Below, in pieces: positions 5,672 through 51,115 of a DNA stretch of 64,000 nt (positions within the stretch are counted from its first letter, which is position 1; every line of letters begins with the position of its first letter). This stretch comes from Prorocentrum cordatum (Eukaryota). The position numbers and the translations under genes were made by a program. The stretch is from contig CAUYUJ010000002.1 in NCBI GenBank assembly GCA_963575745.1, positions 2,108,001-2,172,000 on the forward strand, given 5' to 3'. Under the pieces are notes generated by a model, which was not told where the DNA came from, searched no databases, and saw only the letters and a program-made list of their open reading frames with translations.

Positions 5672-5738
<67 letters not shown>

Positions 5739-18116: not shown

Positions 18117-19533
18117 GGGGGAGGGGGGGGGCGAGGGTGAACGCAAGCAGCAAACGGGGTTTAAGGAGGAGGGTGCAGGAGGAGGAATCATATAGATGAG
18201 CGAGGGCACTGTTAGCTGCTGAATGCCATGCCCGATGGGCGGCTCGCCGTGGGCATGCGCGTCTACCCCCCTCCTCCTGCGCCCCTCCCCCCTTCCCTCC
18301 CTCCTCGCTATCCTCCCTCTCGCCCTTCCCCCCTCCCCTCCCTCTTCCTCCCCTCTTCCCCCTCCCGCCTCCCGCTCCCCCCCCAACGCATCCCCCCGCC
18401 CTTCCCTCTCCACCCCCCCCCACCTCCCACCTCTCATCCTCTTCATCTTCCTACCTCCCACCCCCGCCGGCGGGAGCGTCGGGGGCGGGGGAGGGGGTCG
18501 GGCGGCGGCGGCCAGGGGGTGCGGATGGGGGGGGGGGAGGGTCGGGCGGGATGGCGAAGGAGGGCGGTTCGGGAGGGGTCGGCGGGCAAGGGGGGGGGGG
18601 AAGGAGATCGGATGGGGGTGCGTTTTTTTTGGGGGGGGGTCGGGGAGGGGGGTCGGGAGGGCAGGGGGGGATGATGGACGGGCGGGGGTCGAGGGGGATA
18701 CCTGGTGACCTGGGTGGGGCGGGGCATTGGGAAGGGGGGCCTGCTTCGACGCCGTTCTGTTTTGCAATTGTGTTTTCAATATCGCTACGTTTTCGTGTTA
18801 CGTATGCCCCACAATTTTAAAATGGCAACTTTCGTAATTCAGCTTCGAGTCGCGCCGTCGTCGCGCATGGCCCGTACAACATCAGTCTAGCGCAGATTGT
18901 TGTTTGCATTGGCGCCGCGTCTCTAAATGCGATACGGTACTTCGCCGCGTTGTCGCTTCGAACTTACTGTTCGCCCAGCTTCGCCTGCCCGTTGCGCGCG
19001 CGGAAGGGGCGTGCAAGCACATGCGTGCCATGCGCGTCGGGTGTCGATGTATTTTTTGGGGTGGCTGATCGCGCTGTAGCTGGAGGTGTTGGCGCAGTCG
19101 CCACATGCGTTTCCATCTGTGTATTCGCCCACAAGCGCCCGTTAGGGCACCGCGTATGTCTTCGCACAGCCCCCGCCGAGCTCCCCCCCGCATGCACCCC
19201 GCGCCTTGCCTGCGAGCGGCCGCGCCGCCCTGAACATCCTCAGGGCGGCGCGGCAATTCTGCCTTCTGTCCGACGCTTGCTCGCGGCGCGGCGCGGTGGC
19301 GCGGGCGGGCCGCGCGCGCCGCATTGCGCTTCCCAGTCGGGGCTTAGGTTGCCCTGAGCATCGCGTGCGGCGCCCCGTGCCGCATTGGCCAGGGTCGCCC
19401 GCGTGTCTCTGAATTGTAATGGCGCGGTTAACATGCGCTAGTTGCTCATGTGGGACAGATTGTACATCTATATTTAACTGGTCTAGATAGCAGCGACTGG
19501 CATTATACCGAATGATAATACCGTAGCGGTGGC

Positions 19534-23187: not shown

Positions 23188-23234
<47 letters not shown>

Positions 23235-26125: not shown

Positions 26126-29100
26126 ATGGAAAGGGCCCGCAGCAGGCCCGCGGTAGCATTGGACAGCGTGCCAGGTTCTGCACATTTCGGTTACCCCTCC
26201 CCCCCGTGCCTCCTTTCGCCCCCATGACCGCCGCTGTCGCTCAAGCCCATTTTGGGCGCTCCCCCCTTCAGGGGCGGGGGGCTCGGGGCGGTCGCCCCTA
26301 GCGGCCATGCAGCTCCAGTGCTCGATCAGGGCGTTCAGCCTGTACGACGACGAGCCAGCGCTGGGCACCGTGCGGCAGGTCATCGCCTCGACCGTCACGC
26401 AGGAGGTCAGCGTCCTGCCCTCGAACAAGGACCGCCACCTTCTATGATTTGCATTGTCAGGCAACTTGGCCCCGCTCCGCCGTAGTGGTTGTTCAGGGTT
26501 GCTTTTGCGTCTGCTGTGTCTTATTCTCCAGCCGCGCCGATGCCCCAGAGATGTCGCGCGGGCAGCACGTCGCATCCTCGGGCGCTCTTTGGGGGGTGAG
26601 GGGGTGGGAGGATGAGAAGGGCAACGAATAGGGTGGGCTGGGGGGGGGGGGCGGGGGGGGAGGGTTCGGGTGGCATTTCGTTGGGCGCAGGGGGGGTACC
26701 GTGACCACGACAGTAAGTAGACCCGCAGGTCGATACACGACGAGCAGGACGACCAGGTCGACGAGGCGGGCGATGCATGACGCAAGTGTGAACGAACGCA
26801 GGGGGTTGGGAGCAGGTGGGCCCATGAGGAGTTGCGGGGATTCGGGTCGAGGGAGGTGCGAGCTCGTCCTGGGAGGCCTTGCCTCTTCCCCCCTTCATGT
26901 GGGCTGCCCTGGTCGAGCGGTCGGCGCCGCGTCGGAACGTGTGCTTGACTGGTTGCGAAACGTGTGTGTGTGTGTGTGTGCCATCTTGGGGCGCTCCTGA
27001 GGGGCATTCCACGGGCGCTGGATGGCATTTTGGGGGTACCTGATGGTCTTCTCGGCAGCCTCGGATGTCCCAGTGAGGTCAGATCGGGGCAAGTGCACCG
27101 AGAATTGGTCTCGGGGGGCCATGGGGGTCGCCTTTGTTGGGCTCAGCGTTGCGCCCTGGGGCGCCCGAGTTGCGTGAGTGCCCCCCCCCCCCTCTTGGGC
27201 GCCTTCGGCATGCTGGTAGGTGGCCGCGGGCTCCAGTCGGAGCGATGTGGTGCAGCATCTAGTGGCCTGGGGGTGTAGTTGGTTATGTCGGTTGCAATGT
27301 ACAGGTTTGTTGGCGTAGGGTCGAGGCCGTCCTGTGCCATGCTGGAGGCTCGCGCCTCGGCATTGCACCCCTGTCCCGACCTTGGTAGGGCGGCGCCGAG
27401 GAGTAGACAACCCCACCCCCGAAGGTGCAACATGATGGGTTGGGCGGTTGAGCTTTTTAGACCTTGTCCACACATGCGGCTGGCGGGGCTGCATGCGCTG
27501 CCAGGTTGTTGTCCCGCCTGCGCATTGTGCCCATCCTAGTGCGACCAGCCCCCGCCAGGAGTGGGTGCTGTGGATGGACCCCGACGACGAGGCCGAGGAG
27601 GCGATGCTCGTCCCGAAGGGCGTGGACCTGGACGACCCAGCTTGCGAGATCGAGACCCACTTCGCGCAGAACTTCTTGTCGTTCCGCCACTACGGCAGCG
27701 GCGACGAGTTCAAGGACGTGCTCCAGGCCAGCGACGGCACTCGCATCCCTCGGAAGGACATCAAGCAGGCGCACACCATGGCCACGTTCACCTTGATCGA
27801 GGAGGCCCCTGGGCGGGAGGCTCTGCAGGCGAATGGTGCAGTATTCGAGCACGATTGGGCTGGCCACGTGTTCATTGATTTCGTTCATTTAGTTGACGGG
27901 ATGCACCTCCCGCTCCCGTACAAAAGAGCATCGGATTGGTTCAACAAAAAAGTTGATCGCTGGAGGGAGTGGGGGGCCAAGGCTGGTCTAACGCGAAGCT
28001 GTTGCAGGAGCAGCCAGCCTTGCGGCGGTCAGGAGCTGCGCGATCATCCCGAGCGGATATTGCTCTTCCCCAGCGTGTCCGTGAAGCTGCTCGTCGTCAT
28101 GTCGCATCGGGCGTGCTTCTCGAGCGCCGAGAGGCACGGCCAGCTTCGCGACCATGCCACGCGCCAGGCTTTCGGCAACTTGTACAACAGCCTCCTGGGC
28201 ATGCTCCCGATGAACTTCACGATCAACGTGCGCGTCGACCGCTTCGTTCAGAAGGCCGCCCCGATGGGTCGCGGCTGGGGCAGAGCGAGGGGGCCGAGGG
28301 GAGGAGGAGGACGCGGCGGCTGGACTTGAGGATCCTGATGCGGCGGTAGGCCGTGGAGGTGGGGGGGAGAGGGGAGGGGGGAAGGAGGCGGGGGGCGTGG
28401 GGGGGGAGGTGCGAATTGAGGCACGCGCGCGGAGGAACGTTTTGGGGGGGCGCGGCGGCGAGGAGGAGGAGGAGGACGTGGTGGAGATTTGGTTTATGAG
28501 ATGACGGGAAGGAGGTGGAGGACGGGGGCGGATGATCTCAGCATCGGCGACGGCGGGGGGAGTGGTGGTTGGGCGGGGTCTGGGCGTTGGGCTGGGGTGG
28601 CTGGGTCGGGTTACGGCGGGGCGTCGAGGTGGGCTCATCGAAGATAATGTGTGTTTCGCCTTCCTGTTGTTTGAAAATGTTTGGGGTTGATGTTGCGCGT
28701 CGTGCGCTGCTCGTCGCACTCGCTGCGCCGCTCTATTGCTGTGTGTTGTTGCGTTGGTTTGTTGGCATTTGTATTTCAAGACTGAAGTGTTGCAACTGCG
28801 TTTAAATAGTTGTTGGTGGTTGATTTTTCGTGCGCATTTGCTGTTCAAGTTATTTTAACTCGTCATGGGTTTGGCCAGCGTCGTGGTCATCCAGCTCCCC
28901 AAATATGCCCCATCGCCTTTAATCGCTAGTCGTTTTCTCGTTCCTTATTGCCGCGCGTGGCGCGCGCCCCCTTTCCGCGCGTAGCGCGTTCCACGCAGTC
29001 TCGCCATTTCCTGTTTCAGGAATGGCTTCAAGGTGGTGTTCCAGTCGGCGTTAGGACCTCATAGGTTTTGGCGTTCAGGTTTACCTTTTTTTCCGCGGTT

Positions 29101-30445
29101 GGGCCGACGCGCGGGAGCTCGCATAAAACTCGCTCGCGTTGTTGTCAACTGGCCCGCGCGGCCTTTTGACGGCGCGGCGTGCACGTCGCATCTTCATGCT
29201 ATCTGGTCGTTCCGTTGTTCATGATTCGCCGCGCTGGCTAAAGCCTTGCCCATGTCATTTACCACGCGCGGCGCACAATCCCCGATGCGCCCGTGCTCGC
29301 ATTGTGCTTCTCAAGCAGGTTGCCGCCCGTGTGCCGGGCCGCCCCCGCGTGCGGAGCCGCGTCTTGTTGTGCCGCGTGCTGTTCCTACGTTGAAGGGAAG
29401 GTGCCGCGCGCGTGCCGTGCCGCGCTGCGCCCGCGCGCCGCGCCGTGCCGCGCCGTGCCGTGTCGCGCTCGCTTCCTGGGCTGCGCAACCTGCGCCGCCC
29501 GCGAGCGGGGGCGCGCCGTGCCCGCGCTGGCCGTGCCGCGCCGCGCCGTTCCGTGCCGCTCGGGCGCCCGCGGCGCTTGCGCGAGCGGCTTGCCGTGCCC
29601 GCGTGCCGCGCAGCATTGCGATTGGCTTCTGTATATCGCCGACCAATGGATCACGCAGTTCGAATCCGATCCGCGAACTTCTTCCGCCGCCCCCTACAGG
29701 TTCACTCACAGCGCGCTTTTGCATTCAGCGTTGCCGTTTCGGGTGCTCTAACGCGCGCCGCCATGCTTCCAATCGGGCGCGCTTGTGCTCGACCGATAAA
29801 CGCGGGCGCGCGTGCGCCCGCGGGCAACGCGAATGAGTCGCCTCGGGTTGGGGCCCGAGCCTTCCGCCACCCTTCCCCCGCCACCTTTCGCCTCCGCCGT
29901 AATTGGCGCCTGCCCATGGCGCGCGCGCGCAGGGCGGTCGGCGCGGCCGACGAGGACATGCCCCCGCGGTTGTCTGCGCTACACAGGGGCCTCGCGACGA
30001 GCGCGCATCTGTGGGCCAACCTATGTTTCGTAGATCGAAGCTTCCATTGCGTTAGTCGGGGCGTCTGCCGCGTGGCATTCGGCGCGGGCCCCCCCGCGAT
30101 ATGGGCGGGGTCAGCGAGCAAGCCATCCGCGCGGCGAAGGGTCATGGTCGAGTTCGAATGCCCCCGCGGCAGGGAAACAGCATTGCGCGCGCCTGCTTGC
30201 ATCGGCGCGGGCCCCATGCGATGCCGCCGCCGTTCGGTGGGCGGGGGGCTTCCAGGCGACGCCTTTTTACGGATTCCGCGACAATGCCGTCTACTACCCT
30301 GTATTGGGCGGCAGACGCGGGCAGAGTAGTCAGCGACGCTGCGGCGCGCTTGGCTGACGCGGCGCAGTGGCCCGACGTCGGCATCCACGCGCCCTCGCCG
30401 AGGAATTCAGTAACGGCAGCGTTTCCTTCCCGATCGCGCGGGCCA

Positions 30446-30512
<67 letters not shown>

Positions 30513-33500
30513 CGCTACCGTTTCTCACCATTGGGTTCAACTTCCACTGCTGCCGACAAAGCATTCGCGAAGCACCGCGGCTGCGGCGGCATGCGCCCAG
30601 CACGCGCGATGCCGTCTCGCGCGGCGCTGCTCCATGGGGGCCCCGCCGCGAGCTGTTCGCGGGGACCTACTGCAGTTTCTGGGGGCGCAGCGGCGCGGTC
30701 GACCTCGTGGGCATCCTTCACCAAGACGTTTCGCCGCGTGGGATTTCGGACTGCTCGTCGGGCGGGCATTTGGCGTCGCCGCGCGCGACGGGGGAACGGG
30801 GGCTTGCGCCTGATCCGAAAGGCCATCCACGAGCGCACGCGCACGCTGGGGTTTAGGCTTGCCCTGGGACGGGCGCGCGCGCCCTGCCGAGGTGCTTCGC
30901 CCAGTCGGGGCCAGGAATTGCATGCAGGTTGCAATTGCCTTTTTCGGTGCCGAGGGCGGTGCTTGCGTGCCGAATCGGCGCCCGCTCGGGGGGCCGCACC
31001 GCGGGACGGGCGAGGTCTGCGCGGCCCCCTCCCCCCCCCCGACAAGCTGCGCGGCAGGTGGCGCCATGTCGCGTCCAGGGCTTGGAGGCGCCCGAAGGTG
31101 GCCCCGCGACCTTCGCGCGGGCGCGAGGTCAGGTTTGCCTTGGGCGGCCGCGGGCGCAGAGCGCCCAGCGGGCGCGCGCGTGGCTGGCGGCGATATTCGG
31201 CGGCAGCGGGGCCAGCGCGCGGCGCCGCATGGCGTTTCTAGGTTGCAGACAATGTAATTCCCCGTGCCCCCCCCCCATCGCACCCTTCCTCTCCCCCCCA
31301 TGCCCTTCCTTCCCCAGCCCCCATTCCCCCCCCCCCCCCCCCCCTCTCCCGATCTCCTCCGCTCCCCCATCCCTCGCCCCCCCCCACCCCCGATGCTCTG
31401 GTTGCCGCGCGGGTGTTTGAGACGGGGGTGGCGAGCCGCAGCCACGCAAGCGCGGGTGGCCATTGTTGGGCTGCTGTCGCAGGCGGGCCAGGGCGCCCCC
31501 TACGACGGCCGCGCTCATGCACGACGTGATGATGGGCCGTCAGAAACCATGTGTCCCGTCGGCGGAACCTGGCCGACGTTCAGGCCGCGGCCCGCTGATG
31601 CTTGCCGCGGCAGTGGCTACGCGGAGACGCATGCCACTTTGCGATAGCGGGAGTTGGGCGGCGTGAGGGGTCTGACCAGGCCGCGCGCTGGCAAGTCGGA
31701 GAAACGCGGTGCGGGCTGCGTTGCGCCGAGCAGAGCGTCAATGTTGGGCGCGGCCGTTCGTATCCCAGTGGGCCGTCACCCACCGCGGGCTCATCAATCG
31801 CTGCGGGGTTCGGCCAGAGCGCGGCATGAGCACCCCCGAGGACATTTGCGCGCCCATGGTGGTTTCGCTGGAAGAGCGGGGGGGGAGGGGGGGGGGGGCG
31901 GTCACCCGCGATGTCATGCGGGTACAAGTCGCGCCGTCGCAGCCGCCAGCTACAAGGCGGGCTGGCGGTCGCGCAGACTGCGGTGTGCGAGCCCACCAAG
32001 GTCTACGTTCGGGACGCCCGAGGGGCTCCGCTGTCTTACTTCAGGCGCATCGGTGATTGGGTGGGGCACCCTCGCCGCGGCACCGCTCATCGCGAAGCAG
32101 AACGCCTCCAGCTTGTTCTGGAGAGCGATTTGGCGGGGCACCTTCGCAGTGCGGCCAGTGCATGGAACGCCGCTGCTACCCCGCCAGGCACGTCTGCCGC
32201 GCGGGGTCCAGGGCGGCGGCGCTGGCAATCGGGGATATGCGCATTGTCGGTGGTTTCCAGAGCGGCCATGGTGCCGCGCGCGCTGTCTCTGCTTAGATTT
32301 CGCGGCGCGCGTCGGGCTCGGCGACGCGCGCCCGAAGACTCTGGCGCAGGCCGAGCCGACAGAGGGCGTTCGAGCGCGTCTGCGCGCGGGGCCTTCGGTG
32401 CGAGGTCGGGCTCTGCGCTCGTCGGTGTCCAGGTTAGGTATCTCGCTGTTGCGGCCACTCCTCATCTCCTTTCCAAGTTCCCCCTCCCCCCATCCCCCCA
32501 TCCCCCCCCCCCCCCTCCGCTGGTCGCAGAACCGCGCCTGCTTGCGCGAAGGGCGGCTGTGCCTTGGGGCGCGATTTTGGCCCGCGGGTCACGGCAAGTT
32601 TTAGCATCACTTTGGGTGCGCGGCCAGTTCGCCAGCGCGCGCCCGTTCGCGCGTGGGGCCTCCGCAATATTCTTGGGCGGCGCGCGGGGGGCGTGGCGCT
32701 GGGGTGCACCTGGAACGTGCGAGGGGCCACCTCGGGTACCTTCGGGCGGCCGCGTGTGTTTCCCTCGGGGCGCCCGTGCAGCTCGCGTAGGTTTGGTTGG
32801 GTTTGCATTAATTCGCGGCTCGTTTGGGGCGCGGGGGGGGGGGGGGGGTCTCTTGGGCCGCGCGCCGACTTCTCCGCGCGGGGCCCCGCTGCCTCTCCTC
32901 GGGGGGCTGGGGCACTGGCGCGGGGCCGCGGCGGTTCTCGACGGGCTGTTCAGCGGTGCATTTCTGCGCCTTTCACAGCGAACGGCGGCTCAAACGACAA
33001 CGTTATCAACGAGACGGGCGCGTTCATATTTGTTTCGCGTCATGGGTGCCCTCCTGTGTTCTCCGCGGCGCGCCATGGGGCCACGGGGGTTGCTCGGGCC
33101 CGCGGGCGCGCCGCCGCCCCAATTTGTCGGGGGAGGGGGCCGTGGGGCGTCGGGGGGGGGGGGGGGGGTCGTGTTCCCCCCCCCCGCTGCGCTTTCGCGG
33201 TCTCAGCCATGCGTTTCAAAGGTGTCGCGCAGGTGGTTGGTCTCAATCGCGGTGGCATTCGTTGGGTTATTCAGTCAACTTTCAAGTGGTCGTCGGGCCC
33301 CAGCGTCCTTTGATTATCGCGCGCACCTGCGCGGGCATTGGTGTACGTTTCGGGTTCTATCGCGCATTTGCGGGGGGGGAGCAGGTGTCTTTCGGCTGCA
33401 TGCGCGCGCGTCGCGCAAAAATCGCCGCGACGCGAAGTCGGGAGGAGGGGTGGGCATGGCATCGCAGCGCCGCGTTCGGCGTGATCGCTGTGGGGCCACT

Positions 33501-36500
33501 GGCGACCAGCTCGCATCGGCACCACTGGACGCCGAGCGCACCCCCCCTCCCATCGCGGCATCCGCGGGGCACGCGCCTTGGGCGCCATCGGTTTATTTGG
33601 GGTGGGCCGCGGTGGGGCCTGACATGTGGTCGGGGCCGTTGGGGCCACGTAGGGGGCACCCCTGGCATCGCCCAGGGCTTTCGAGCCGCCTGGCAATGTC
33701 CCGACGCAGAGTGTCGTGCTCCAGGGGGGTCGACACCCCCTCGGGGCTCCGCTGCGGCGTTTGCGCGGCCCCGCAGGCGAGACCCCGCCCCCCCCAGGGG
33801 GCCGCGTCGGGCGAGCCGCGTGGCATTGCACTTGGGAGGGGCTTTTCCCCTATGCACCCCCGCCCCCCCCCCCCCCCCCCCCCCCACGCGCACACACGCG
33901 CGCGCACACGCGCACACGCGCGCGCGGCGCATCGCTGCAGGGCAGCTGTCGGGGGGGGGGGGGGGCGCGGGTGCCAGGGTTGCTTTCGCGATACCATCGG
34001 GCCCAGCATGCACTTTTATGTTTTCCATTATGGTCGGTCACAGAGTTGCCAGATCTCTTCAAAAGCCGATCTGAGGGTTTTAACATTGCGTTCATTGCTT
34101 GTGTTTCCTGTAATGTAGAAATCATAAGTGGTTTCACCATTTATGTTTTGACATTACAAATGTTATATTTAGATATAGTCGTGCTTCCAGTAGCTATGGT
34201 ATAGTTATCAGCAATCGCATAATTATTGTTTGCACGCGTGCATTATTTTTCTGGCAGTTGGACAATGTCTGAATACAAACAATTTGCAAATTGGCCAGTC
34301 TTGCCGTTCTACGCATTGTATGCGTCTGTTCCGTTATAATTAGTTTTGCCATGCGCTTGGTATCGGCTCGGTTGTTTCGTCCGTCGGCACGCGTGCGCGT
34401 TGTTCTCCGCGTTCGGGGGATCGAGAGGGGTGGGGGGGTGGGGGCGGGGGGAAGGGCTGTGGCGGGCGGCGCATGGGCGGGGGGGTGGTCGGGCACGGAT
34501 GGGGGGGGGAACGGAAGGGGGAGCATGCGGGGGGCGGGGGAGGGGTGGGGGAGGAGGTGGAGGACGTGAGGGCCAGGAGGGATATTTGGAAGGGAGGAGC
34601 ACGGGGGGGGATGGTGGGGGGGGGCATGGGGGGGGGCCCAGCGCGCAGGCCAACCACATCTGGACTGGCAAGTGCCCTGCCTCGATCGTCGTGACGAACG
34701 GCGTGGTGAGCCTCGAGGACATCAGGGAGCTGCATAACAATGACATGATCCCGACCGACTTCACGCCGAGATATCGGGAGCAGATGGTCGCCCTCCTTGG
34801 GCTGGACTCCAGCAGGTTCTGCGAGTTCATGACGGACCTCTTCAACTTGTCCTACAAGGAGCACAACGAGCTGAACACTGCCATTGCCAAGCAGGCGCGC
34901 TTTTTTTTTCTTGTTGTTTCTTTTGCTTTGCGGCCGCGGCGTCGGCGACGACGGCTGCGGAAACGACAATGTGTCCAATGGCGACGGCGACGCCTCTGAC
35001 GACGGCGGGGAGGGCGAGCGCGAGGGGGAGAGCGCCGATCGATGATGACAACGACGACGGCGGCGGCAGGTCGGCGACGAAGATGACGACGACGATGGCG
35101 AACGCGACCGCTGCCCACGACGGCAGCGACGGCCAAGACATTGACGATATCAGACGACGGCGACGACCGACAAAACACACCGATGACGCATGCGACGACG
35201 ACGACGACCGACGAAGACGGACAGGCGACGGACCGCAAACGACGATTGGCGACCGAGTGACTACGACCGATGGCGACCGATGGCGACGGCGACATTCGAC
35301 GACCGACTAGCGACGATCGGTCAAAGAGGGTTGGTGGATGACGGTTGGCGAATGACGACCGCGGCGGCGATTGACGGCCGCGTCGGCGTCGACGTCTTGG
35401 TGGTCGCCGTCGTCGTCGTCACCCCCGTCATCGTAGTGGTCCCCGTCGCCGTGTTCGTCGTTGTCAGCGTGGATGGCGTCGTGTTTTTTGGTCCTGGCCA
35501 TTTCGTCGGCTTCGTAGTAATCGCTCGTCGTTAGTTGACTGACTGCCGTTCGTAGCCGTTTGCTGCCAGTCGGTAGCCGTCGTAGTCGTCGCAGTCGTCG
35601 TCGTCGTCGGCGGCGGCGGCGGCAGCGGCGGCCGTCGTATGTCGATCAGTTCTGATTGGCGGTCGCCATTCGTTCGCCTCTGGCCCGCCGTTCCGCACGT
35701 CCTGCTCTTTGCCTCCATGTCCCCCGCCCATGTCGCATCCAGCCTCGCATCGCTAAGTGTTAACAGCAGACGTTCTGTCGTTTCTCGGGTTGTCTCGCCG
35801 TGCGGCGCGGGGCCCCATGCATCTCTCAGCAGGTGCTCCACTGCGTCGGCGGCATCATTGAGGACAAGCTCAGCGGGAGCAAGCCTCGTCGGGGCCCAGA
35901 CGGCCTCCCGCTCGAGCGCCACGCAGCCGACGCGGGTGCCAGCTACAGCCAGTATTACCCCGCCTACCACCCCAAGTGTTGGCGCAAGACCGAGAGGGAG
36001 TTGTGCAGATACATCTCCGCGACGAAGTCGAAGTTTAAGGAGCATGTTTTGTGTGAGTTTTGCCTTGTGCCATTGCTTTCGCCGCCGCTTTGCCTCGCTC
36101 GCTTGACCCCCCTCCCCTCCCCATGCCAGTTGGCCGTCTCTCTTGCAGCACCCTCGCCTCTGGCCTACGCCCCCCTGCCCCTTCCCCCGTTGTTGGGCCG
36201 CCTCGTCGTCGGCCCCTCGGTGCTGGGCGGCGTGCTTGCACCGCCACTCTCCCCCAAGTCGGTTGCATGATGTGCGCGGTGGTCGTTGCTGCGGGTTCTG
36301 GTGTTCAGATTGGGCCGACCCCGTCCTTCCCCTCCCCAGCTTATGCGCGCGCCCCCTCCAGGGCAAGCGGGTGCTGAGCATGGCGGGCCCCGACGGCACG
36401 AAGATCGGCACGGACAACGCGGTCTCGTGCGCGGCCATCATGGATTGCGAGACGGGGCTCACTGCAGTTTGCCTTCCCCAGGCCCGTGCTTTGACGCCGC

Positions 36501-39500
36501 GTTGCGATGGCGACGTTGACCTTGCCGACGACGGCGACGGCGTCGTCGAGGGCCGCGTCCGAAATTCAATCGTTGCCACGACGGCGACGACGGCGGCGAC
36601 GACGACGCCGACGACGACGACGACGACAGCGACGACGACGACGACTGCGAATCCGTGGGCGACGAGAGTGACGACGCCGACGGCGACGACGAGGGCCTTG
36701 GGTTCGTCGTCGTCGGGTCTCGCCCGTCCGTCTGCCGTCGGTGGCCGATCGTCGTTTGTGGTCGTCGTCCGTCGCCGTTGTCGTCGTCGTCGTCGACGTC
36801 GCCCGTCGTCCTCGTCGATCCTCAGTCGTTGATTGTTGTCCGTGGGTGTCCTTCGTGGGTGGGTCGTCTACTGTCGTCGTGGGCAGTCGTCGCGCTCGTC
36901 GTCGTTATCGGCGCTTTGGCGTCGTCGTCGTCGTCTGCATCGTCGTTGCCGTCCGTCCGTCGCCCTGATCGTCGTGGTCGTCGTCGGCGTCGGCGTCGGC
37001 GTCGTCGTCGTCGTCGAGGTGGTCGTCGTCGTCGTCGCGGTCGTCGCCGTCGTCGACGTCGGTGTCGTCGTCGACGCCGTCGCCGTCGTTGCCCTCGTCG
37101 TCGCCCTCGTTGTAACGGCTCGGGGCCGCCGTGTCTACGACCTTGATTTCGACGGGTCGAGGATCTGAGGTTTGGGGGGTCATGACTAGGATTTGAGGGG
37201 GTCGCGGGGTCCGAGGCCCTTCAGCTCAGGCCCGCGCGCAGGCAGTGGAGGGTAGCGAACTCCACGCAATGGAAGATGGCGGGCTCTAGGCTCTTGGGTT
37301 CCAGGGGCCCCGTGGGATCTACCATCGCGCGCTTCTGGAATCTACGAGCTGGGGCGTGGCCGAGGTCCACTGGGGCTGGGGCCTTGGGTTCGGGGCGTCG
37401 GGGCTTGGGGGGTCTCAGCTTCAGGATTTCAGGGCCCTCCTGGCTCCTGGGGCCCAGGATCTAGTAGGGGGCTACGCTGGGGCCGCTATGTGAGGAGTCA
37501 CGCTGAGGCCGCCCAGGGATGCAGGGCCTGGCGCATTCGGGCGCCGAGGGCCCCCCCCCCCCGAGCCCATCCCCCCCGTTCGCCGCCGCTGCCGGGACTT
37601 GGGGGGGGGGTCCAAAATCGCACCCCTCACAGGGTTCGGGGGTGCACCTCGAGGGCGTTCGCGGCGACTGCCGGGACTTGGGGGGGGGTGTGTTGGGGAA
37701 CACGATCTGCGTGAGGGGTCGCAAACCCGACCCCCCTCCCCAAACACCCCCCCCATCTCGGAGAGGTTTTGGGTTAGCGCCTCGAGTGGTCTCCAGCGCT
37801 GCGGATTGCCGCGCCCCGCGGGCACCCCCCCCCTCTCCCGCAGGTGCCAGCGCAGCACATGGAGGAGGACTGCTTCTTGGACGAGGACGCCCTGAAGGTT
37901 CACCAGGAGGCCCACCGCGAGTACATCAAGACTGCCGAGGGGCTCGGGGAGGGCGCGGGGGCTTCCGAGGGCGAGGGCTTCGGCGGCCCTCCGACATTGT
38001 CAGAGCGTTCCCAGGGGGCCTCCGAGGGGCTGCCGAGGGGCCCCGCCGCGCGGCTTCCGACGGGGCCTCCGAGGGACCTCGACGGGTCTGCTCTGACATC
38101 CCAGTGCCTTCCGAAGTGGCCTCTGATGGGGCTTCCGAGCTGGGGTGATCTTGGAGGCCCCGAGAGCGCCTCCACGTGGGCCCCGAGCGCCGCGCGCCTC
38201 GACTCCGAGGACCGACCGTGGGAAGGGGCCTCCAGAGGGCTTCCGATGGGTTTCCGATGGGGCCCCCGAGGGGCCTCCGAGGGGCGTCCGAATGTTTTCC
38301 TAGGGGCCTCCGAGCCTCCAAGATGCTTTCGAGGCCTCTCCGAGCTTCCAAGCTTTAAAGAGTTTCCGAGGGGTTTCCGATGGGCCTCCTCCCTGCCCTC
38401 CCCTTCCAGCCCACTTCTTCGCGACTCGCCTCGCCCTCTCCCTGCGTCTCCTCTTTTGACGCCTCCGCTTTCTATATATCCCCTCCCTGCGTCCTCTTAG
38501 ATCTCTGCCCCGCTTCCAGCTCGAATTTGCCCCCGCTCGTCTTCGCCAGAGCTCCGTCTCACGCTCGATCTCGTCACGCTTGCGAGTCGCTTGCCTTCGT
38601 GCCCAGACGCGTCACCCTCAGGCACTTAGGGCCCCGATCCGTTGAGGTTCGTACTCGACCTTCTGGTGCCCACCTCGCATCATTCTCTGCCCTCCTAACC
38701 CTTGCAGGCCGCCCCCATACATGCTCGCCGCTCCTCCTCGGCGACGCCCACCGCTTTCCCTTTCGGGTCCACCCGTGTACCCTTGCTCGCCTCCGTCGCC
38801 CCGTGGTCAGCCCCGCCGCTTTTTGGCCCCCCCCCCCGCGCAGCGGGGCCCGCCCATCCCTTCGCCCAAGCCCGTTCGCGGTGGCTCGGCCCCGACCAGC
38901 ATTTTCCCGCACCCCCTCCGCCCGCGCCCCGAGGACGGTCGTCAGCCGCAGGCTCGGCGCCAAGGTGGCCGCATCCGAGGGCCCCCCGCCCAGGAAGAGG
39001 CAGCGCACCAAGACTTACCAGGCCATCATGCACATCGACAATATGTTGCGCGGGTCGGCAGATGCCAAGCTGGCGGACTTTCGGGTGCAGCGCCGCGAGG
39101 ACGGCTCCTTCGTGGAGTCGCCCTTCGACTGGCCGAGGCTCAACATCGCCACGGACATGGGGCCCGACATGGTTGCGAGCGAGTTCTTCATATCATTCCA
39201 GCCCAACTTGGACTTGAACATCAGTTGGGACTTCGACGTGGCGCATTCCCTGAACAACGCCTGCAAGGGTATATTGAGGCCCCACGCTTGTCTTTACAGC
39301 GCGCCGAGCAGCCGTGTGAAGATGAGGAGTATGAGGAAGATGCTGAGTGCTCGGGAAGCGGCTGGATGATATACTGAGAAGAAGGGGCACGAGAGGGGGG
39401 AGGCAGGCGACACGTTGGGGGGGAGGGAGTGCACCCCATCAGCTAGCGTTGCATCCCCCCCCCGCGCCGACCCCAGGCGCTCCAACCTGTGGAAGTTCCA

Positions 39501-42500
39501 GGTCCTCATGGCGACGGCCCAGAACTGCACGTACGGCAGTACATTATCACCTCCCCGACTTCAACAAATTCGAGAAGCAGTTCGCGACCATTTGGCTTCA
39601 ACCACTTGCTCCACCGACAGCCTCTTCCAGCTCTACTTGCCATACATCCGCAATCAATTGGGGGTTGCTGGGCTTGTGTTCTAATCGCCTTTCTTCTGGG
39701 GCATTGGGGACGGCAGCATTCGTCGGGGGGGCAGGTCCACTTAGGTCGGTCATCTCCGCGGCAGCCGTGGCAGCGTTTGCGCTGTGATCTCGAAGGGCCG
39801 AGTGCACCCCCTCCATCCGATCGATTGCGGGCGGGGGCAGCGAGCAGCGGCGCTACTGACAGTTAGGGCTTCGAGGGGCATGGGCAGGTTGTAGCAGCTG
39901 TCCCAGATGGGGGCGCGCTCGACGGGGGCGTTGCGGCGGGCTGCCGCCGTGGATTTTGGGCGCTTTGAGGGGTGGGTGGGGGATGGAAGCGATTGGCTCG
40001 GGGGTCGGGGTGGGGAAGCAGCGTTGACAGAGGCTAGCTCGGGCATGACGAGTCGCTGGGGCAGTTGGGGCATGGGGGCTGGCCGCGGATGATTAGGGGC
40101 GCTTGTTGGGTGGTTGGTGGTGGCGGGGTCGACGGGCAGAGGGCCGCCATCCTCCCCCCCCTCTTCCTCTACCTCCTCAGCCTCGCAATCAGGGGGGGGG
40201 GCGGGCCAGAGGTGCGCCCCTTGCGGGGGGAGGTTGGCGCGGTTGGGAGGGGGTGAGTAAATGATGGGGGTATGGTCGGCGTGATGGCAGAGGGTGCATG
40301 GGCTGGGGTGCGGGGGCAGCGGGGCTGGTCGAGGGCCATTTGCAGCCCCATTCCCGCGCCCCAGGTGGATCCTGCTTCAGCCGCGGGGGACGCCGATGTC
40401 ATTTGGAACGGCTTGAAGCACCACCCATTCTTGATGAACAAAGGGGAGCGAGTGAATTTAGGAAAATACCAGGCCCCCGTCCACATCGCGAAGAAAACTT
40501 TGGGGCTGTACTCGTTCAAATCATATTTTTTCAACGCCGCAGCTTTGCGCATCGGCCTCAAGGGCGCCGACCGCCGCCACCAGCCAGCGCCGCCCAAGCC
40601 CGCGGACCCCGAGTTGGAGGCCAAGCCCACTGTGAAGCAGGCTGGGAAGGAGCCGTGGACAGCTGAGACGACGAACCAACTCGACCGCGCTGCCTACGTG
40701 TTCGGCGACATCGAGAACTACTTCGTTCAACAAGTGATAGTGAACGTGCTGCACCCGACGTGCGAGCTGCACGCGAGGCGCCCCATGGTCAATTGTTGTC
40801 ATCATGTTAGTGCGGTTGTCGTAGCAGGTTGTAACGTTTGGGGCCCTCGGGGTTCGGATGGGCACCGCCATGCGGGATGGGGGTGGAGGAGGGGGGCAAG
40901 GGGGAGGGGGGGCTCTGGGCTGCGGGCGGGCCCGTCGAGCAGGCCGCGGCGTCAGGGCCCGTGGGCATAGGGGGATGTCAACGTCCCAGCGCGTGAGAAC
41001 GCCTGTGATTTGTTCGCAGATGTCTGGCGAGTGAAAGGTAAGGGCAGGAGGGGGACGGGAGGAAGGATTCAGGTGGAGGGGCACTGGAGGACGGGCATTG
41101 TATCAGGCAGGAGGGAGGACGGGCAGGGAAGTCGGCAGGAAGGTTCGGCGATGGGGAGGGGGGGGGAGGCGGGGATGAAGGGGGAGGAGGGAGGCGGAGG
41201 TGGATTGGAGGGGGGAGGCGCGGAGGGTTTTTATTGATGGGGGGGGTGGGCTAGCAGGCGGAGTCGCATCTATGCGTTTGCTCTCCCCCCCCCCTGTCTT
41301 CCCCCACCCAGGCAGAGCAGGCAGTTGAGGGAGCGCGGGGCGGCCCTCGATTGGGAGCTCGCCATGTGCCAGGGTCAGTACAAGGAGCTCGAGACCCAGG
41401 CGATCAGCAACTGGACGGACACGCAGAAGTACAACGACATGGGCGTCGAGGTCAGCTGGAACTCCACCACGCTGTGCTTGGACCACCCGCGGGTCGCCAG
41501 CTCCGACGAGCTGGCCAGCGCGATGGTCGGCCTGAGCATCGCGACTGCCATGGAGCATGCGAGGAGGAGCTTCTTGTACTCCCACGGGCTGCCGAGGCGC
41601 ATGGCCCTTTTGCTCCAAGACGGGTTGTGCGACCAATTCGCGACAGAGTTGAGGGAGGATTGGAGGCTGTACAGGAAGCTGAAGGACGAGTGCACGTTCC
41701 CTGGCTCGAAGGCCATGGCTGCGCGCTCCGTCTTCAACAAAATGCCCGTGCTGCAGCTCGTCCTCTGCCTGGAGGAGGAGCACTGGGTGGTCACGGAGAG
41801 GTCGGGGGCCTGGCGACACATGATATCTTACCATGTCGATGCCTTGCGCTAGCGCGCCAGGCGCGTTAGGGCGGGGCATCGGTCGAGTAGGGTGTCTGTT
41901 TCGTCTCCAGGTTACGCAAGTGGGTGAGGAGGGTGGGGGACCGCTTCATCTGCCAGCAATTGGTTGAGGACAGCTTTGGGAAGGTGAAGTCGAGAGTGGA
42001 CAGGATGTCCAACACGGTGTGCACACCGCAGGCCACAATGGCTGTGATCGTGGACTCGAAGGTGCTCAGCACTACCCACAGGTACATCGAGGTGGACCGC
42101 AACGACGTCGCACCAGAGCGTGGAGCAGTTCTCGACCCACGCGCATTCAAGCCAGCGCTGCAGCGGCGCCTGCTGGACGTGGCCACCCGCAACTTGAAGC
42201 TGTTTGACGTGAGCGGCACGGGCCCTCCCTCGTGGTACTCGACTTCGGCCCACAACTACTGCGAGAACCTCGTGGACCTCGAGGTCATCAGGCAGGCGAA
42301 TCGCGCGGGCAAGATGGAGTCGCTGCACCGCAGGTGGTTGGCAGGCCTCGCGAACGACGGCATCATCCTGAGGCGCGTTGGGACCGAGGATTGGATGCTC
42401 GGCCTGGGGTGCCTGAGCACCAGCCTGGCTGTGGGCTGGCCCATGCGGAGGCTCGGAGTCGGCGTCGCCAAGTGGGTCCCCGACCTTGCCAAGGAGCGGC

Positions 42501-45500
42501 AAATGTTCATCATCCTGGACCCCGCGGAGTGGCAGGCCTTCGAAGTCCAGTACCGCTCCCCCCTCCACCAGGCGGTGCGCCTCGAGATGACTGTCAAGGG
42601 CCCAGCGTCGAACTCGGAGACCGACGTCGACCTGCAGGACTGCGGCGGGCTTGGGGGGGGGAGGGGGGGGGCGAGGGTGAACGCAAGCAGCAAACGGGGT
42701 TTAAGGAGGAGGGTGCAGGAGGAGGAATCATATAGATGAGCGAGGGCACTGTTAGCTGCTGAATGCCATGCCCGATGGGCGGCTCGCCGTGGGCATGCGC
42801 GTCTACCCCCCTCCTCCTGCGCCCCTCCCCCCTTCCCTCCCTCCTCGCTATCCTCCCTCTCGCCCTTCCCCCCTCCCCTCCCTCTTCCTCCCCTCTTCCC
42901 CCTCCCGCCTCCCGCTCCCCCCCCAACGCATCCCCCCGCCCTTCCCTCTCCACCCCCCCCCACCTCCCACCTCTCATCCTCTTCATCTTCCTACCTCCCA
43001 CCCCCGCCGGCGGGAGCGTCGGGGGCGGGGGAGGGGGTCGGGCGGCGGCGGCCAGGGGGTGCGGATGGGGGGGGGGGAGGGTCGGGCGGGATGGCGAAGG
43101 AGGGCGGTTCGGGAGGGGTCGGCGGGCAAGGGGGGGGGGGAAGGAGATCGGATGGGGGTGCGTTTTTTTTGGGGGGGGTCGGGGAGGGGGGTCGGGAGGG
43201 CAGGGGGGGATGATGGACGGGCGGGGGTCGAGGGGGATACCTGGTGACCTGGGTGGGGCGGGGCATTGGGAAGGGGGGCCTGCTTCGACGCCGTTCTGTT
43301 TTGCAATTGTGTTTTCAATATCGCTACGTTTTCGTGTTATGTATGCCCCACAATTTTAAAATGGCAACTTTCGTAATTTAGCTTCGAGTCGCGCCGTCGT
43401 CGCGCATGGCCCGTACAACATCAGTCTAGCGCAGATTGTTGTTTGCATTGGCGCCGCGTCTCTAAATGCGATACGGTACTTCGCCGCGTTGTCGCTTCGA
43501 ACTTACTGTTCGCCCAGCTTCGCCTGCCCGTTGCGCGCGCGGAAGGGGCGTGCAAGCACATGCGTGCCATGCGCGTCGGGTGTCGATGTATTTTTTGGGG
43601 TGGCTGATCGCGCTGTAGCTGGAGGTGTTGGCGCAGTCGCCACATGCGTTTCCATCTGTGTATTCGCCCACAAGCGCCCGTTAGGGCACCGCGTATGTCT
43701 TCGCACAGCCCCCGCCGAGCTCCCCCCCGCATGCACCCCGCGCCTTGCCTGCGAGCGGCCGCGCCGCCCTGAACATCCTCAGGGCGGCGCGGCAATTCTG
43801 CCTTCTGTCCGACGCTTGCTCGCGGCGCGGCGCGGTGGCGCGGGCGGGCCGCGCGCGCCGCATTGCGCTTCCCAGTCGGGGCTTAGGTTGCCCTGAGCAT
43901 CGCGTGCGGCGCAATTGTGTATGGGATCGCACGTGTGTCTCTTGACATTTTCATGGGCGCGTTAACATGCCGCTCGCTTTGCTCATCGTGGGCAGATGTG
44001 TACATCTACATTTATACTTGTCTAGATATGCAGCGAACTCGGCATTGATACCGAATGATAATACCGTAGCGGTGGCGATAGCGGGATCGATATTGATATG
44101 GATAGCTTATGGTATCGGTGCAAGCATGGATTTCGGCCGTGGGAGCGGCAGTAGGATCGATGGATAGTGATATCGCTTCTGGTATCGGTTGTTGGTGGGT
44201 CGTGAGATCGTCGCGGTGCGGCGACCATTGCGCTCTCCGACCGCCCCCCCGTTTGTGCGCCCGTGGTCATTACCCCGCCCCGCCCCACGCAGAATGCCGT
44301 GCGGGTCGCGGGCCACGCGGGCGGCTGCGGCGCCGCCAGTGGGGCGCATCGCGGACATGTTGTATACATGGGCTGACGACGCATGCAGCATCGCCGTTGG
44401 CCGATATGGGGGAGGGGTAGTCGGGGGCGCGGGAGGTGGGTGGGGTGGGGCGGGGGGCGCTCGCGCGCGCAGCGCCTTATTGGCAGAAAACGGCTTGCCC
44501 CGCAATGCATTTGACGCGCGAGTTCTCGGGTGCCCGCATCCTCGCGTAGTTCTCCCGATGATGGTGCGCCTCCGTGCACGAGCGAAGATGCCGCGCCCCC
44601 TCGAGAGAGGGCGCCGAGCTTGGCCAGTGCCGCCGCCAGAGATCGCCACGGGAGCCCGCGGAGGGGGGGGCTTGGTGGGTCGGCAGCCGCTGCTGCCATG
44701 TTCAATGGTGGTGTCGTTGCCAGACCATTGCGTTGGGCGGTCGTTTTTTCCCCAGCCCGCGCCGCTGCGCCGAGCCCCCGTTTGGGCCCGCGGCGCCATG
44801 TGTTCCCCGCTCACCTTCCCGCCCTCCTCTCCCGCGCCCCCAGGGCCCCTTCGCGCGCCCTCGGCATGTCCCAGCGCGTTGCCCGCACGCGGCGCGCGGC
44901 GGTCGGGGCGCGACTTGCAAGTGGCATCATCGCGCATGCCGTTGAACGCGGGTTCGCGCATGCACCGTTCCGCAGGACATGCGTGCGGACGTGTATGCGC
45001 AGCGTTGGGCGCCTTTCTGGCTGTTCTGGAATGCGCGGTCGCGCCGCCAGGGGGTGCGCCGTCGCCGCCGCCGCGCTTTCTTCTTTCAGGGCGTCGGCGG
45101 CTGTCGCCGAACATCGCGCAAGCACGGCGCTGTCCGCGTCGGGCGACCATGGCCAGGCGCGCGAGCCATCGCCGTTGGCGGGATGCGGGCGAGCGTGGCG
45201 CAGGCGCGCGGGTTGCCCGATGTGGCTAGGTGCCAGGCCGAAGAGATGACGCGGAGCCGCGCAGCGGGGAAATCCGCCAAGTCGGGCGGGCCCCCAGGAA
45301 TGAGCATTCCGCGCCGAGATGCGCTCCGAGGCAAGGCGCGCCCCGAGCAGCGGGCGGGCGCCCGCGCCCCAGTGCCCGCCCCCGCATGCGGCCGTGGCGG
45401 CGGATGCTCGGCCCTCCGCGGGCAGTTCGATGCCCGCGTTTACATTTCCGTTGCTCTCTCATTGAAAAACGCACGGCGCGCGGCCTACGTTGACGCGGGG

Positions 45501-48500: not shown

Positions 48501-50462
48501 TCACCGTTGCCGCATTTATCGGTTGCCACGTTCCAATTTCCGTCACCATTTGTCACATGGGTGTTCCCGTGTTTCATGGTTTGATGTTGTTTCGCATGGG
48601 TGGAGAAATCCATGTCCGTTCGTAAGTTGCGATTCCTTAAGGTCGTCCGCTCAACGTGTGCACGTGTGTTCAATGGTGTCGAATCGGGCCCGCGGGGGAG
48701 GGGGGCGCGGGATGGGGCGGCGCAGGGGTGGAGAGGGGGGGGGGGGTCGGGGGCGGGATGGCGAGGGAAGGGAGGGGATGGGGGGGGTGGGGAGGGGGTC
48801 GGGGGAGGGGAACGGAGCTTTCGTCTCCTCCGCCCGTTTCTGCTTCCCGCTTGTCCTTGCCGCCCGCCCCCTCCCTCCTCGCGCGCACCCCCGTCGCCCC
48901 CCTAGAGGATGGCGCCAAGTACCCCCGCGTGCCCATCGTCGCGGCGCAGGTGGGCGACGTGATGCCGCTGCTCACCCTGGCGGCCAAGCAGGGGTTCTGG
49001 AAGCTCCCAGCCTGGTGGATGCGGGAGCTTTGCGACTACATGGAGGTCGACTACAAGTCGGCGGGCCTCGCGGACTTGATCGTGGCTGCTTGCGGGAAGA
49101 TCCTGGCCCCCATCTCCCAGGAGGGCTTGTTGGCGATCCTGCAGAAGCGCGCCTTGTCCTTCGAGGACGACCGCTGGACAGAGGAGTTGCTGACCTTGGA
49201 GTGGGTCACGGACGCGTTCGACCAGAAGGTCTCGGAGGAGGTCGCGAAGGAAGTGAAGAAGAGCCACACCACCACGACCGAGAAGCAGGACTTCCACAAG
49301 GACCTCAACAAGTTTCGGGTGCAGGGGGGTTGCTCTAAACATTCAGCGTCGAAATGTCCACTCGCCAGTGCCAGTGCGTTCGTTTTGCGCTTTGTGAATC
49401 CCCTCCCCCGCCCCGCCCAGGGGCCATGCCCAGCGCAGTTGTCGCGTCGGCTCCTGGTCGGCTTACTCGCGAGATCGTTGGGGAAGGTGGGGGAAGGGGC
49501 GGGGCAACGGGCGGGGGCAATCTGAGTTTGCATCACGGATAGGAGGTCGTGGGCGCGGGCGACGGGGGTGGCGGCGAAAACAGATCTGCGGGTCAGGGTG
49601 CGGACAGGCAGGGGCGGCGGCGGGGTGGGCGACGCGGGAGCAGCAGGAGGTACGTATGATGAGGAGGACGTGAATGAGGATCATGTTGAACGTGATGATT
49701 GGGATCAGTAGGGCCAGGAGGGTGAGGGCCAGGACAACGAGGAGGGAGCCCGCCCATCCAGAGACGATGCCCAGGTGATTTGCCCTGATCGGTTGAGTGC
49801 GGCATCATCTGGCAGTTGTCTGGGGGAACCCTGGAGGTCCCTTGGTGTAATTTTGGGGCCCGTCTGGGGCAGCCCTGGGAGTCTTCCAGGGGGCATTATG
49901 GTGGGGGATGCGGTCGGGTCACCCTGGAGGCTTTGGGTGCCATCTGGAGGCTTTCTTGCAGTGCATGGGTCATGGAACGCTGCTTTCTGAATGCAGCCTG
50001 CTGCACCTTCAGACCCCAGAGTAGCCGAGCACGGCGACGACGACGACGACTGAAACGACGACGACGACCGACACCGACGACGACGCCGACGGCGACGGCG
50101 ACGGCGACCGACGACCGACGACCGACGACGACGACGACGACGACGACCGAAGACCGACGACCGACAGCGACGACGACGACGACCACGATGACGACGCCGA
50201 CGACGAAGACGACGACGAAGACGACGACGAGGACCGACAATCGACGACCGACGACCGACGACCGACGACCGACGGCCGACGACCGACGGCCGACAACCGA
50301 CGACCGACGATCGGCGACCGACGACCGACGGCGACGACCGACGACGACGCCCGACGACCGACGACCGACGACCGACGACCGACGACCGACGACAACCGGC
50401 CACCGACGACCGACGCCGACGACCGATGCCGACGACCGACGCCGACGACCGACGACCGACGC

Positions 50463-50493
<31 letters not shown>

Positions 50494-50529
50494 CGCCGAC
50501 GACTGACGACGACGACCGACGACGACGAC

Positions 50530-50560
<31 letters not shown>

Positions 50561-51115
50561 CGACAACCACGGCGACCGACGACCGTCGACCGCCGACCGA
50601 CGACCGACGACGATGGCGACGGCGACGACGACGACATCGACGTCGGACGGCCCGTGTATGTCGGCCTCTGTATTTGAAGCGGGCCTCGCCAACGATCCAT
50701 CCTAGCTGCAGGTGCCTGGCATTATCGCGTCGCCCGTCGTCTCCCCCGAGCCCCCCCCTTGCCTCGCCGCCGCCCATCCCAGGTGAAGGTGAAGGGGAAG
50801 CCGCCAGCGGCGAAGAGCAAGAACCACCCCATGTACCAGAAGGACTACAAGGTCGCCGCGCTGAGCCCAGAGAAAGACCTCAGCCAGCGCGAGGCGAAGG
50901 CGTACTGCCCTCCAGGTTGCCACATCTGGAGGGCGAACGTGAGGGGAGGGTGGCACTACCATTTAAAGCCGCACAAGCGCGGCAGCTGTCCCTGGAGCAG
51001 GTTTGGAGGCGACAGCTTCGCAGCCATGAAATCATGCATGGCAGACGCGTGGAGGCTGTGGCTGTCCGACCGCGGGCTCCCCGATTCCCACTGCCCGATT
51101 CCTGGGCTTCTCTGA
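26126..51115 (+). CDS. Large DDE-type transposase (about 1,476 aa from ATG 26126, or 1,458 aa from ATG 26307); hAT/P/MULE/Kolobok-like DxxH architecture; possible C-terminal AP2-like domain
   Basis: Exons: 26126-26174 (tentative), 26302-26429, 27559-28254, 34649-34894, 35833-36039, 36362-36481, 37844-37941, 38952-39278, 39477-39663, 40365-40777, 41312-41800, 41911-42637, 48908-49318, 50783-51115. Total 4431 nt, in frame to TGA. Candidate catalytic motifs: LSMAGPDGT (D 36392), LNIATDMG (D 39154), DVAH (39235-39246), QQLVEDSF (E 41966). Confidence 0.75.
28640..34380. mobile_element. Decayed nested insertion in a transposase intron, copy 2; boundaries approximate
   Basis: Homologous to about 3870-9600; lies inside the 6.4-kb intron 28255-34648. 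Confidence 0.45.
43290..48680 (-). mobile_element. Second decayed nested insertion or composite; possibly includes a minus-strand non-LTR remnant; boundaries approximate
   Basis: Lies in the 6.3-kb intron 42638-48907 and has AT-richer ends. Weak minus-strand APE-like remnants (VNVGRAP near 45490; RPTQWSGNDTTIE near 44720) are interleaved with GAC and GGT microsatellites. Its start is also present at about 18750-19533. Confidence 0.35.
50030..50645. repeat. (GAC)n/(GACC) compound microsatellite in the last transposase intron
   Basis: Directly visible gacgaccgacgaccgacgac runs. Confidence 0.9.

Follow-up and report, generated by a model that had tools for sequence, protein, structure and literature searches.

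A 25-kb gene of Prorocentrum cordatum encodes a member of an unannotated protein family that probably derives from a hAT-like RNase H-fold DDE transposase

The stretch of Prorocentrum cordatum DNA analysed here (64,000 nucleotides of contig CAUYUJ010000002.1, positions 2,108,001 to 2,172,000, hereafter the window) contains a gene that extends from position 26126 to 51115. All gene coordinates are given as window positions, and the gene is on the + strand throughout. It is a genuine dinoflagellate-type nuclear gene, and its product of approximately 1,445 residues probably belongs to a large unannotated family derived from a hAT-like transposase of the RNase H-fold DDE type. The core of the family, from helix α1 to helix α4, is similar in predicted fold to that of the hAT transposase Hermes. 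The residues discussed below are the first candidate acidic residue (D1), the second one (D2), the D(2)H motif shortly after D2, and a late glutamate (E).

AlphaFold models were made of two homologs of the window protein, P0153 from P. cordatum (1,461 residues) and P0084. Model 1 comprises residues 396-1216 of P0153, was calculated from 129 alignment rows, and has a mean predicted local distance difference test score (pLDDT) of 83.2 and a predicted template modelling score (pTM) of 0.80. It contains a helix (residues 124-141 of the model), a strand (166-170) ending in front of D2 (171), a second helix (174-185), and a strand (190-194) that leads directly into D195xxH198. These elements are followed by an all-helical region (198-590), by E597 inside the helix 594-609, and by a β-domain (729-789). 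Model 2, calculated for P0084 from 35 rows (pLDDT 81.5, pTM 0.84), has a strand (138-142) followed by D143, another strand followed by D168xxH171, and E571 in the helix 568-582. Model 2 also includes a long helical hairpin and a C-terminal domain of three strands plus a helix. In both models, a strand immediately precedes D2, the following strand immediately precedes D(2)H, and E is part of a helix. The insertion of about 400 residues between D(2)H and E is all-helical in both, in agreement with the largely helical insertion that an earlier note on this DNA had anticipated from the letters alone. The order of elements matches the canonical RNase H-type order, α1-β4(D)-α2/3-β5-[C/D](2)H-insertion-α4(E), as laid out in the available part of PMC8230255. 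Agreement with a Chou-Fasman style guess of strands and helices was loose, and the guess does not count as evidence here. For another homolog, P0057, the ESM Atlas model was too poor to be used (pLDDT 0.32).

An exhaustive structural search against 48,161 representative chains ranked Hermes first (8edg_A; Z 8.7, root-mean-square deviation 5.0, 302 aligned residues), with residues 121-641 of the model aligned to residues 216-609 of Hermes. It was the sole chain with a Z of at least 8, and the chain in the second rank had a Z of 5.4. In a second look at 958 chains, two other Hermes entries reached Z 8.8 (6dww_A) and 7.8 (2bw3_A), and the next chain 4.3. The alignments of model 1 to Hermes comprised 302-306 residues. 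Model 2 was aligned to the same range of Hermes over 299 residues with a Z of 6.4. The superposition takes in both strands, the insertion domain and the helix carrying E, and the conserved residues at D2, D(2)H and E coincide exactly with the catalytic positions. Chains of the P element, MULE, RAG1 and Transib were not among the structural matches listed, which is no evidence against relatedness.

The extent of the family was determined by searching the block 41891-42739, which contains the E motif, against 1.84 billion cluster representatives. The search yielded 384 matches at E ≤ 1e-3, among them 101 at E ≤ 1e-10 and 22 at E ≤ 1e-30, where the matches are clusters at 50% identity. Named sources are P. 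cordatum, with at least five distinct records, Polarella glacialis, one MMETSP transcript, and one EukProt entry labelled Pyramimonas. The other members are from ENA, Logan and JGI contigs, 1-14 kb long. No related loci were found in the metagenome contigs, viral contigs or prokaryote genomes searched. The word-index search for homologs of the D2 exon returned no matches; with region 400-640 of P0153 it found only P0023 and P0157, and profile A2 found only P0023.

Conservation of residues was counted in P0153 numbering. In alignment A3, D566 (D2) is present in 17 of 17 sequences, D590 and H593 of the D(2)H motif in 17 of 18 and 18 of 18, N597 in 16 of 19, and N621 in 18 of 18. In the region of the late glutamate, S949 is found in all 34 sequences, E992 in 33, D993 in 29, and F995 in 30. 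Alignment A1 has a glutamate at position 992 in 99 of 108 sequences and an aspartate at position 566 in 18 of 18. The window protein keeps all of the conserved residues with the exception of D598, which is an asparagine in the window. Only P0153, P0023, P0157, P0142 and the window protein contain the D1 segment (SMAGPDxTK), and the aspartate is retained in all of them.

A quick midpoint-rooted tree of the family comprised 117 rows, rows with fewer than 170 residues in the region used having been excluded; 45 of its 114 branches are open, and the branches are long, with a median of 0.74 changes per site. Because the long D1-bearing forms fall on both sides of this tree, the sequences suggest that the D1-bearing N-terminus is ancestral. 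Forms of about 1,000 residues have unrelated first residues, often ending in Q, and then a shared "VV.DF" start, which coincides with the intron acceptor at 37844 of the window. This hints at a conserved intron position, with internal starts or intron retention in the shorter forms. The homolog P0157 (1,128 residues) is 56% identical to P0153 and keeps the N-terminus, D1, D2 and the C-terminus, but has neither the insertion domain nor E; either a deletion or the skipping of exons would account for this form.

The gene model was derived from homology. The window has a G+C content of 65%, and its + strand contains coding-like blocks with ordinary amino-acid composition from 27.5 to 51.1 kb. A tblastn search with P0153 gave ten collinear matches that place residues 89-1461 of the homolog at 27736..51112. 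Exons were modelled with GT or GC donors and AG acceptors. The 13-exon model (26307..51115) comprises 4,323 nucleotides and encodes 1,440 residues, with the terminal stop only. When the resulting protein was compared with P0153 by BLASTP, a single high-scoring segment pair joined residues 93-1440 to residues 89-1461 of the homolog at 28.7% identity (E 1.9e-172). Alignments to the relatives of about 1,000 residues, P0084 and P0053, begin at residues 520-538 of the window protein. A 14-exon variant, in which 26126-26174 is joined to 26302, has an open frame of 1,447 codons followed by the stop, so that the claim of the earlier note that 14 exons join without a stop was reproduced. At each junction there are 15-127 alternative GT/GC-AG pairs that keep the frame. 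Therefore, consistent phases are weak evidence alone, and it is the collinearity with homologs that proves the exon chain. The exact exon junctions are approximate and homology-guided. In the exons, G+C is asymmetric among codon positions (0.851 at the third position and 0.437 at the second). Of the 160 fetched homologs, 36 match the 3' exon at 48.9 kb and 30 the one at 50.9 kb, and because of these matches both exons belong to the same gene; the homologs that match them also carry the E domain. Judged by sequence comparison, the exons from 26126 or 26307 to 51115 form one gene.

The model contains six GT and six GC donors, most of its acceptors are followed by G, and its introns range from 131 to 6,391 bp. 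The available text of the P. cordatum genome description (PMC10666404) gives a mean gene length of 24,462 bp with 11.7 exons and a mean intron of 4,709 bp, 51% GC donors, 80% AGG acceptors, and a coding-sequence G+C of 65.9%. A 25-kb layout with GC or GT donors and AG|G acceptors is ordinary for such dinoflagellates. The description of the gene in the earlier note as "cryptic" and "spread over 25 kb" was thus overstated, since the gene would be cryptic only if compact genes were expected. Scans of the window for Rfam families and tRNAs gave no matches, and neither did a search for a DinoSL relic.

The optional 5' mini-exon (26126..26174) is without homolog support, and the exon with the ATG of the 13-exon version (26307..26405, MQLQCSIRAF...) ends in a GT donor. 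The exon 27559..28257 encodes an N-terminal domain that matches residues 89-277 of P0153 and is without a known family. It is followed by the exons 34649..34894 (ANHIWTGKC...AIAKQ, GC donor) and 35833..36045 (matching P0153 residues 348-427). The D1 exon (36368..36481, RVLSMAGPDGTKIG...LTAVCLPQ) has an alternative 3' end at 36514 and contains the candidate D1 codon at 36392..36394, which is an aspartate in four of four D1-bearing sequences. The exon between D1 and D2 (37844..38052) has an uncertain 3' end, and its acceptor corresponds to the "Q|V" start of the forms of about 1,000 residues. The exon 38994..39278 encodes the basic patch RKRQR, α1, β4 with D2, and β5 with D(2)H. The D2 codon of NIATD (39154..39156) corresponds to D566 of P0153, and the motif DVAH (39235..39246) to D590 and H593. 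The insertion domain starts in the exon 39477..39663, where GSTLSPPRLQQIREA has the same letters in P0153, and continues in the exons 40365..40777 and 41312..41800; the GC donor of the former gives the junction ELHA|RQSRQLRERG, collinear with P0153. Helix α4 with E and the small β-domain are encoded by the exon 41932..42592, which found the 384 matches of the family, and the codon of the candidate catalytic E of QQLVEDSF (41966..41968) corresponds to E992 of P0153. The exon 48908..49318 encodes a helical region, and the last exon (50852..51115, with the stop and an uncertain 5' end) the C-terminal domain of about 70 residues with three strands and a helix.

The candidate acidic residues are D428, D592 and E1008 in the numbering of the 13-exon protein; in the 14-exon protein, D1 (LSMAGPD) is residue 446 and D2 (NIATDMG) is residue 599. 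Two of the spacings in the earlier note were reproduced in the 14-exon model, where DVAH starts 27 residues past D2 and E lies 416 residues past D2, in place of the approximate 420. The distance from D(2)H to E is 391-402 residues. The proposed distance of about 130 residues between D1 and D2 did not hold in the gene models, which give 153-164 residues, whereas it is 132 residues in P0153; the spacing depends on two uncertain exon ends.

The gene described above is one of two copies in the window and is referred to as copy B. Copy A (1..19533, + strand) is 97.7-99.5% identical to 24549-44076 and is truncated by the window start and a gap of N letters at 19534-19633. It contains each of the 11 exons that lie within its reach. 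The duplicated segment is at least 19.5 kb long, ends exactly at the assembly gap, and starts upstream of the gene, including a coding-like + strand exon of a neighbour gene (24.5-24.7 kb, corresponding to window positions 1-190). It is a segmental duplication, which could be a true tandem array, unless a haplotype next to the gap was falsely duplicated in the assembly. Because the segment also carries the exon of the neighbour gene, the two copies are no evidence of transposition. The copies differ by 3 substitutions in 3,648 aligned exon bases and 107 in 15,630 bases elsewhere (0.7%; Fisher p 5e-7), which makes divergence eightfold lower in the exons, and the contrast is unchanged when low-complexity sequence is removed. 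All three exon differences (28022, 36372 and 39533) are nonsynonymous, and synonymous ones are entirely absent. At 36372 and 39533, contigs of DNA run X1 have the copy-A letters. Copy A contains a perfect tandem duplication of 223-226 bp (17670-18118) over the end and donor of the E exon, which is not present in copy B and does not disrupt the first donor. Copy B alone has a T-rich tract of 177 bp (25784-25960), directly upstream of the gene, and a 46-bp insertion (26445-26490).

Comparisons with sequence libraries assigned the protein to none of the families tested. Membership failed in every hAT, P, MULE or CACTA model tested. Models of the hAT family (Dimer_Tnp_hAT, DUF659, DUF4413 and others) matched none of 35 long members at E ≤ 1 and none of eight at E ≤ 10. 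For the P superfamily, neither a THAP domain nor a P-element Pfam match was found in the open reading frames of the window or in the homologs. The Pfam search of the 35 members matched 12 families, each of them in one member only. A language-model feature search returned hAT-type families at 0.77-0.79, which is a lead only. The name "RNA-directed RNA polymerase", given in UniRef to P0153 and P0074 of P. cordatum, is without support in Pfam, the PDB or the models. A search of a paper library, by listings and passages of papers, found no earlier description of this protein family. The family is new and previously unannotated, and is absent from the Pfam and NCBIfam models.

Several observations weigh against a transposase ancestry. 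Pfam provided no transposase link for ten open reading frames of the window, 20 long homologs, eight homologs searched at E ≤ 10 or the 35 members, and NCBIfam none for the 35 members. Searching the PDB by sequence, with two profiles (A1 and A3) and four individual queries, gave a best E of 0.12, to an irrelevant entry. The structures are those of homologs only 24-29% identical to the window protein. The structural comparison with Hermes suggested in the earlier note put Hermes first in the exhaustive search, but Foldseek against the PDB gave no matches at E ≤ 0.001. The Z of 8.7 is barely above the 7-8 that is typical of the best match of models without a true match, and model 2 ranks Hermes fourth among 176 chains with Z of at least 5, amid short helical matches. 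Conservation of D, D, H and E, as proposed in the same note, held for D2, D(2)H and E, which are nearly invariant, but the D1 region was present in only four of about 160 fetched homologs, and the forms of about 1,000 residues begin after it. The RNase H fold was likewise borne out in part: D2, D(2)H and E are on β4, β5 and α4, but the D1 segment of model 1 (30-92) has a pLDDT below 50 and no strands. The Hermes alignment starts at residue 216, past the first three strands of Hermes. A complete five-strand RNase H sheet with a clustered triad is therefore only a candidate feature of the protein. The exon-intron contrast between the two copies may reflect codon bias, gene conversion or repeat errors, and not protein-level selection alone, because synonymous changes are lacking too.

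Homology and the models show the order of the domains, and a mechanism can be proposed for the protein. The N-terminal region of about 420 residues ends in the D1 segment (SMAGPDGTK) and is followed by the basic patch and helix α1, strand β4 ending in D2, and a helix. Strand β5 then leads at once into D(2)H and the all-helical insertion domain of about 400 residues. Helix α4 with E-D, the small β-domain, the long helical hairpin, and the C-terminal domain of three strands plus a helix complete the chain. The acidic residues, including D1, may coordinate a pair of divalent metal ions for the cutting and rejoining of DNA, as in hAT transposases. The insertion domain may shape the active site, and the terminal domains may supply DNA recognition.

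The predicted core superposes on Hermes from α1 to beyond α4, insertion domain included, and shares with it D2 after β4, an xxH motif right after β5, and E on α4. The protein differs from hAT transposases in that it matches no hAT Pfam model, and has D(2)H in place of C(2)H, the hAT form. The chain of Hermes has 550 residues, whereas the protein described here has about 1,445, with the insertion of about 400. Approximately 450 residues extend past E (β-domain, helical hairpin and small C-terminal domain), and the N-terminal region of about 420 residues has no match to a BED finger. The hAT elements have short terminal inverted repeats and an 8-bp target-site duplication, whereas no inverted repeat was found between the flanks of this gene and no 8-bp duplication was found, with element ends that only further copies would place. 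The motif [ST]Q..ED.F in the E region may resemble the P-type motif. The P element and THAP9, as described in the accessible part of PMC8230255, also have D(2)H right after β5, an insertion between β5 and α4, and a late E. The distance from D2 to D(2)H is 24-27 residues here, in contrast to 36 in the P element, the insertion is about 400 residues in contrast to about 190, and P-element and THAP Pfam matches are absent.

The gene may belong to a mobile element or be resident in the genome, and our slight preference is that it is resident or domesticated here. Domestication would mean that a transposase-derived dinoflagellate host gene family has reused the nuclease core or DNA-binding parts and no longer moves; we consider this a serious possibility, somewhat below even chances. 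Domesticated copies of transposases often lose their catalytic residues, whereas those of this family are retained; the 384 clusters, the long branches and the deletion derivatives are also more transposon-like. Consistent with domestication are the ordinary gene structure, the low copy number, the lack of element ends, and the exons, which are far better kept than the introns between the copies. Long intact reading frames on transcript-size contigs of 3-8 kb from many sources and on the MMETSP transcript also point to it, and tandem gene arrays are common in dinoflagellates according to the available text of PMC11453091. It is unlikely that the gene encodes the transposase of an autonomous, currently mobile and very large DNA transposon of at least 25 kb, the two copies of which would be transposition products. 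The predicted fold and the residues are intact, the family is highly diversified with many paralogs, at least five of them distinct P. cordatum records, the internally deleted relative P0157 exists, and the two copies are nearly identical, all of which would fit such an element. However, the exon of the neighbour gene in the duplicated segment indicates a segmental or assembly duplicate. A comparison of the flanks of the gene gave no terminal inverted repeats, and the only repeats found window-wide are of low complexity, (GAC)n, C-rich or G-rich. The word depth of run X1 contigs at the locus is low and similar to that of the flanks (this depth gives no copy number), with no sign of many copies; the two copies found, both in the window, are adjacent. 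The twelve long introns represent host-gene architecture. The gene behaves as a low-copy, normally structured gene in this genome.

More distant from a transposase would be a lineage-specific, mostly helical protein that is neither transposase nor nuclease, in which the resemblance to Hermes reflects a widespread arrangement of helices or an artefact of modelling and the motifs are coincidental. The missing sequence link to known families, the failure of Foldseek, a Z that is middling for a largely helical model, the D1 strands missing from the model, and the polymerase name of two members in UniRef all fit such a protein. We nevertheless regard it as improbable. The likeness to Hermes is unlikely to be due to chance, because the single top match among all of the chains searched was of the class predicted beforehand from the motifs, extends over about 300 residues, from the two strands through the insertion domain to the helix of E, and was obtained with three Hermes entries and again in the independent second model, where the range of Hermes is the same, with the invariant residues exactly on the catalytic positions. 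A composite of at least two separate genes, or a pseudogene, is a very improbable reading of the exon chain. Introns of 6.3-6.4 kb set the N-terminal and C-terminal exons off from the core, and there are many alternative junctions. However, one segment pair spans 1,348 residues of an annotated homolog, P0153, P0084 and P0053 each combine core and C-terminal domain in a single chain, and the frame has no internal stops. Descent from a hAT-like transposase agrees best with these observations.

The AP2/ERF-type domain is a three-stranded sheet packed on one helix, and the C-terminal domain of the P0084 model contains the strands 979-983, 988-992 and 999-1002 and the helix 1008-1026. The best small-domain matches of residues 956-1039 of model 2 were two chains of the Toxoplasma gondii mitoribosome (Z 6.7 and 6.6, with 67 and 59 aligned residues). 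The Toxoplasma mitoribosome contains four AP2 proteins, as stated in the accessible portion of PMC11652630, and the two matched chains may be among them. The members scanned had no match to Pfam AP2. An AP2-like DNA-binding role of this domain of about 70 residues is a lead only, given by the model. We speculate, as a long shot, that with this gene a new branch of hAT-like DDE transposases, at the level of a superfamily, has its founding member, a branch that extends across dinoflagellates and other marine protists, invisible to domain libraries and with an AP2-like C-terminal domain of its own. Such a branch might provide the missing autonomous partners of unclassified introner and miniature inverted-repeat transposable element (MITE)-like elements in dinoflagellate introns, and a vehicle for the spread of AP2-type domains in myzozoans. 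According to the available text of PMC12130899, about 72% of introners across eukaryotes, many of them in dinoflagellates, are unclassified and without a known autonomous partner, and the accessible part of PMC7789003 reports that searches of Amoebophrya for transposases with known domains found few or none. The likeness of introner and MITE-like elements to the present gene is that they occur in the same lineages; none of its 12 introns has a terminal inverted repeat of at least 8 nucleotides.

The genomes of dinoflagellates are very large, have many introns and abound in "dark" genes. If active, the protein would represent a deep new branch of hAT-like transposases and a concrete candidate enzyme for DNA mobility in dinoflagellates; if domesticated, a large host family on a transposase scaffold. 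Either way, the gene provides an annotation model for hundreds of unnamed proteins, including the two that now have a polymerase name.

Other features of the window are located around the gene. Coding-like exons of the upstream gene, without a Pfam match, are at 22300-22650, 23300-23500 and 24500-24720 (+), the last of them inside the duplicated segment. A coding-like frame of 230 residues (52130-52819, +) downstream of the gene has no Pfam or PDB match. A run of long open reading frames at 54489-60587 (+) resembles a retroelement; these frames matched no reverse-transcriptase model and had no meaningful PDB match, and the part at 59886-60587 has a weak RNase H Pfam match (E 0.0034), below the cut-off. 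Long (GAC)n/(GTC)n arrays are present at 36575-37113, 50031-50635 and 23127-23301 and in part form inverted pairs inside intron 5. In the DNA-run contigs, these arrays have many joints and very high depth.

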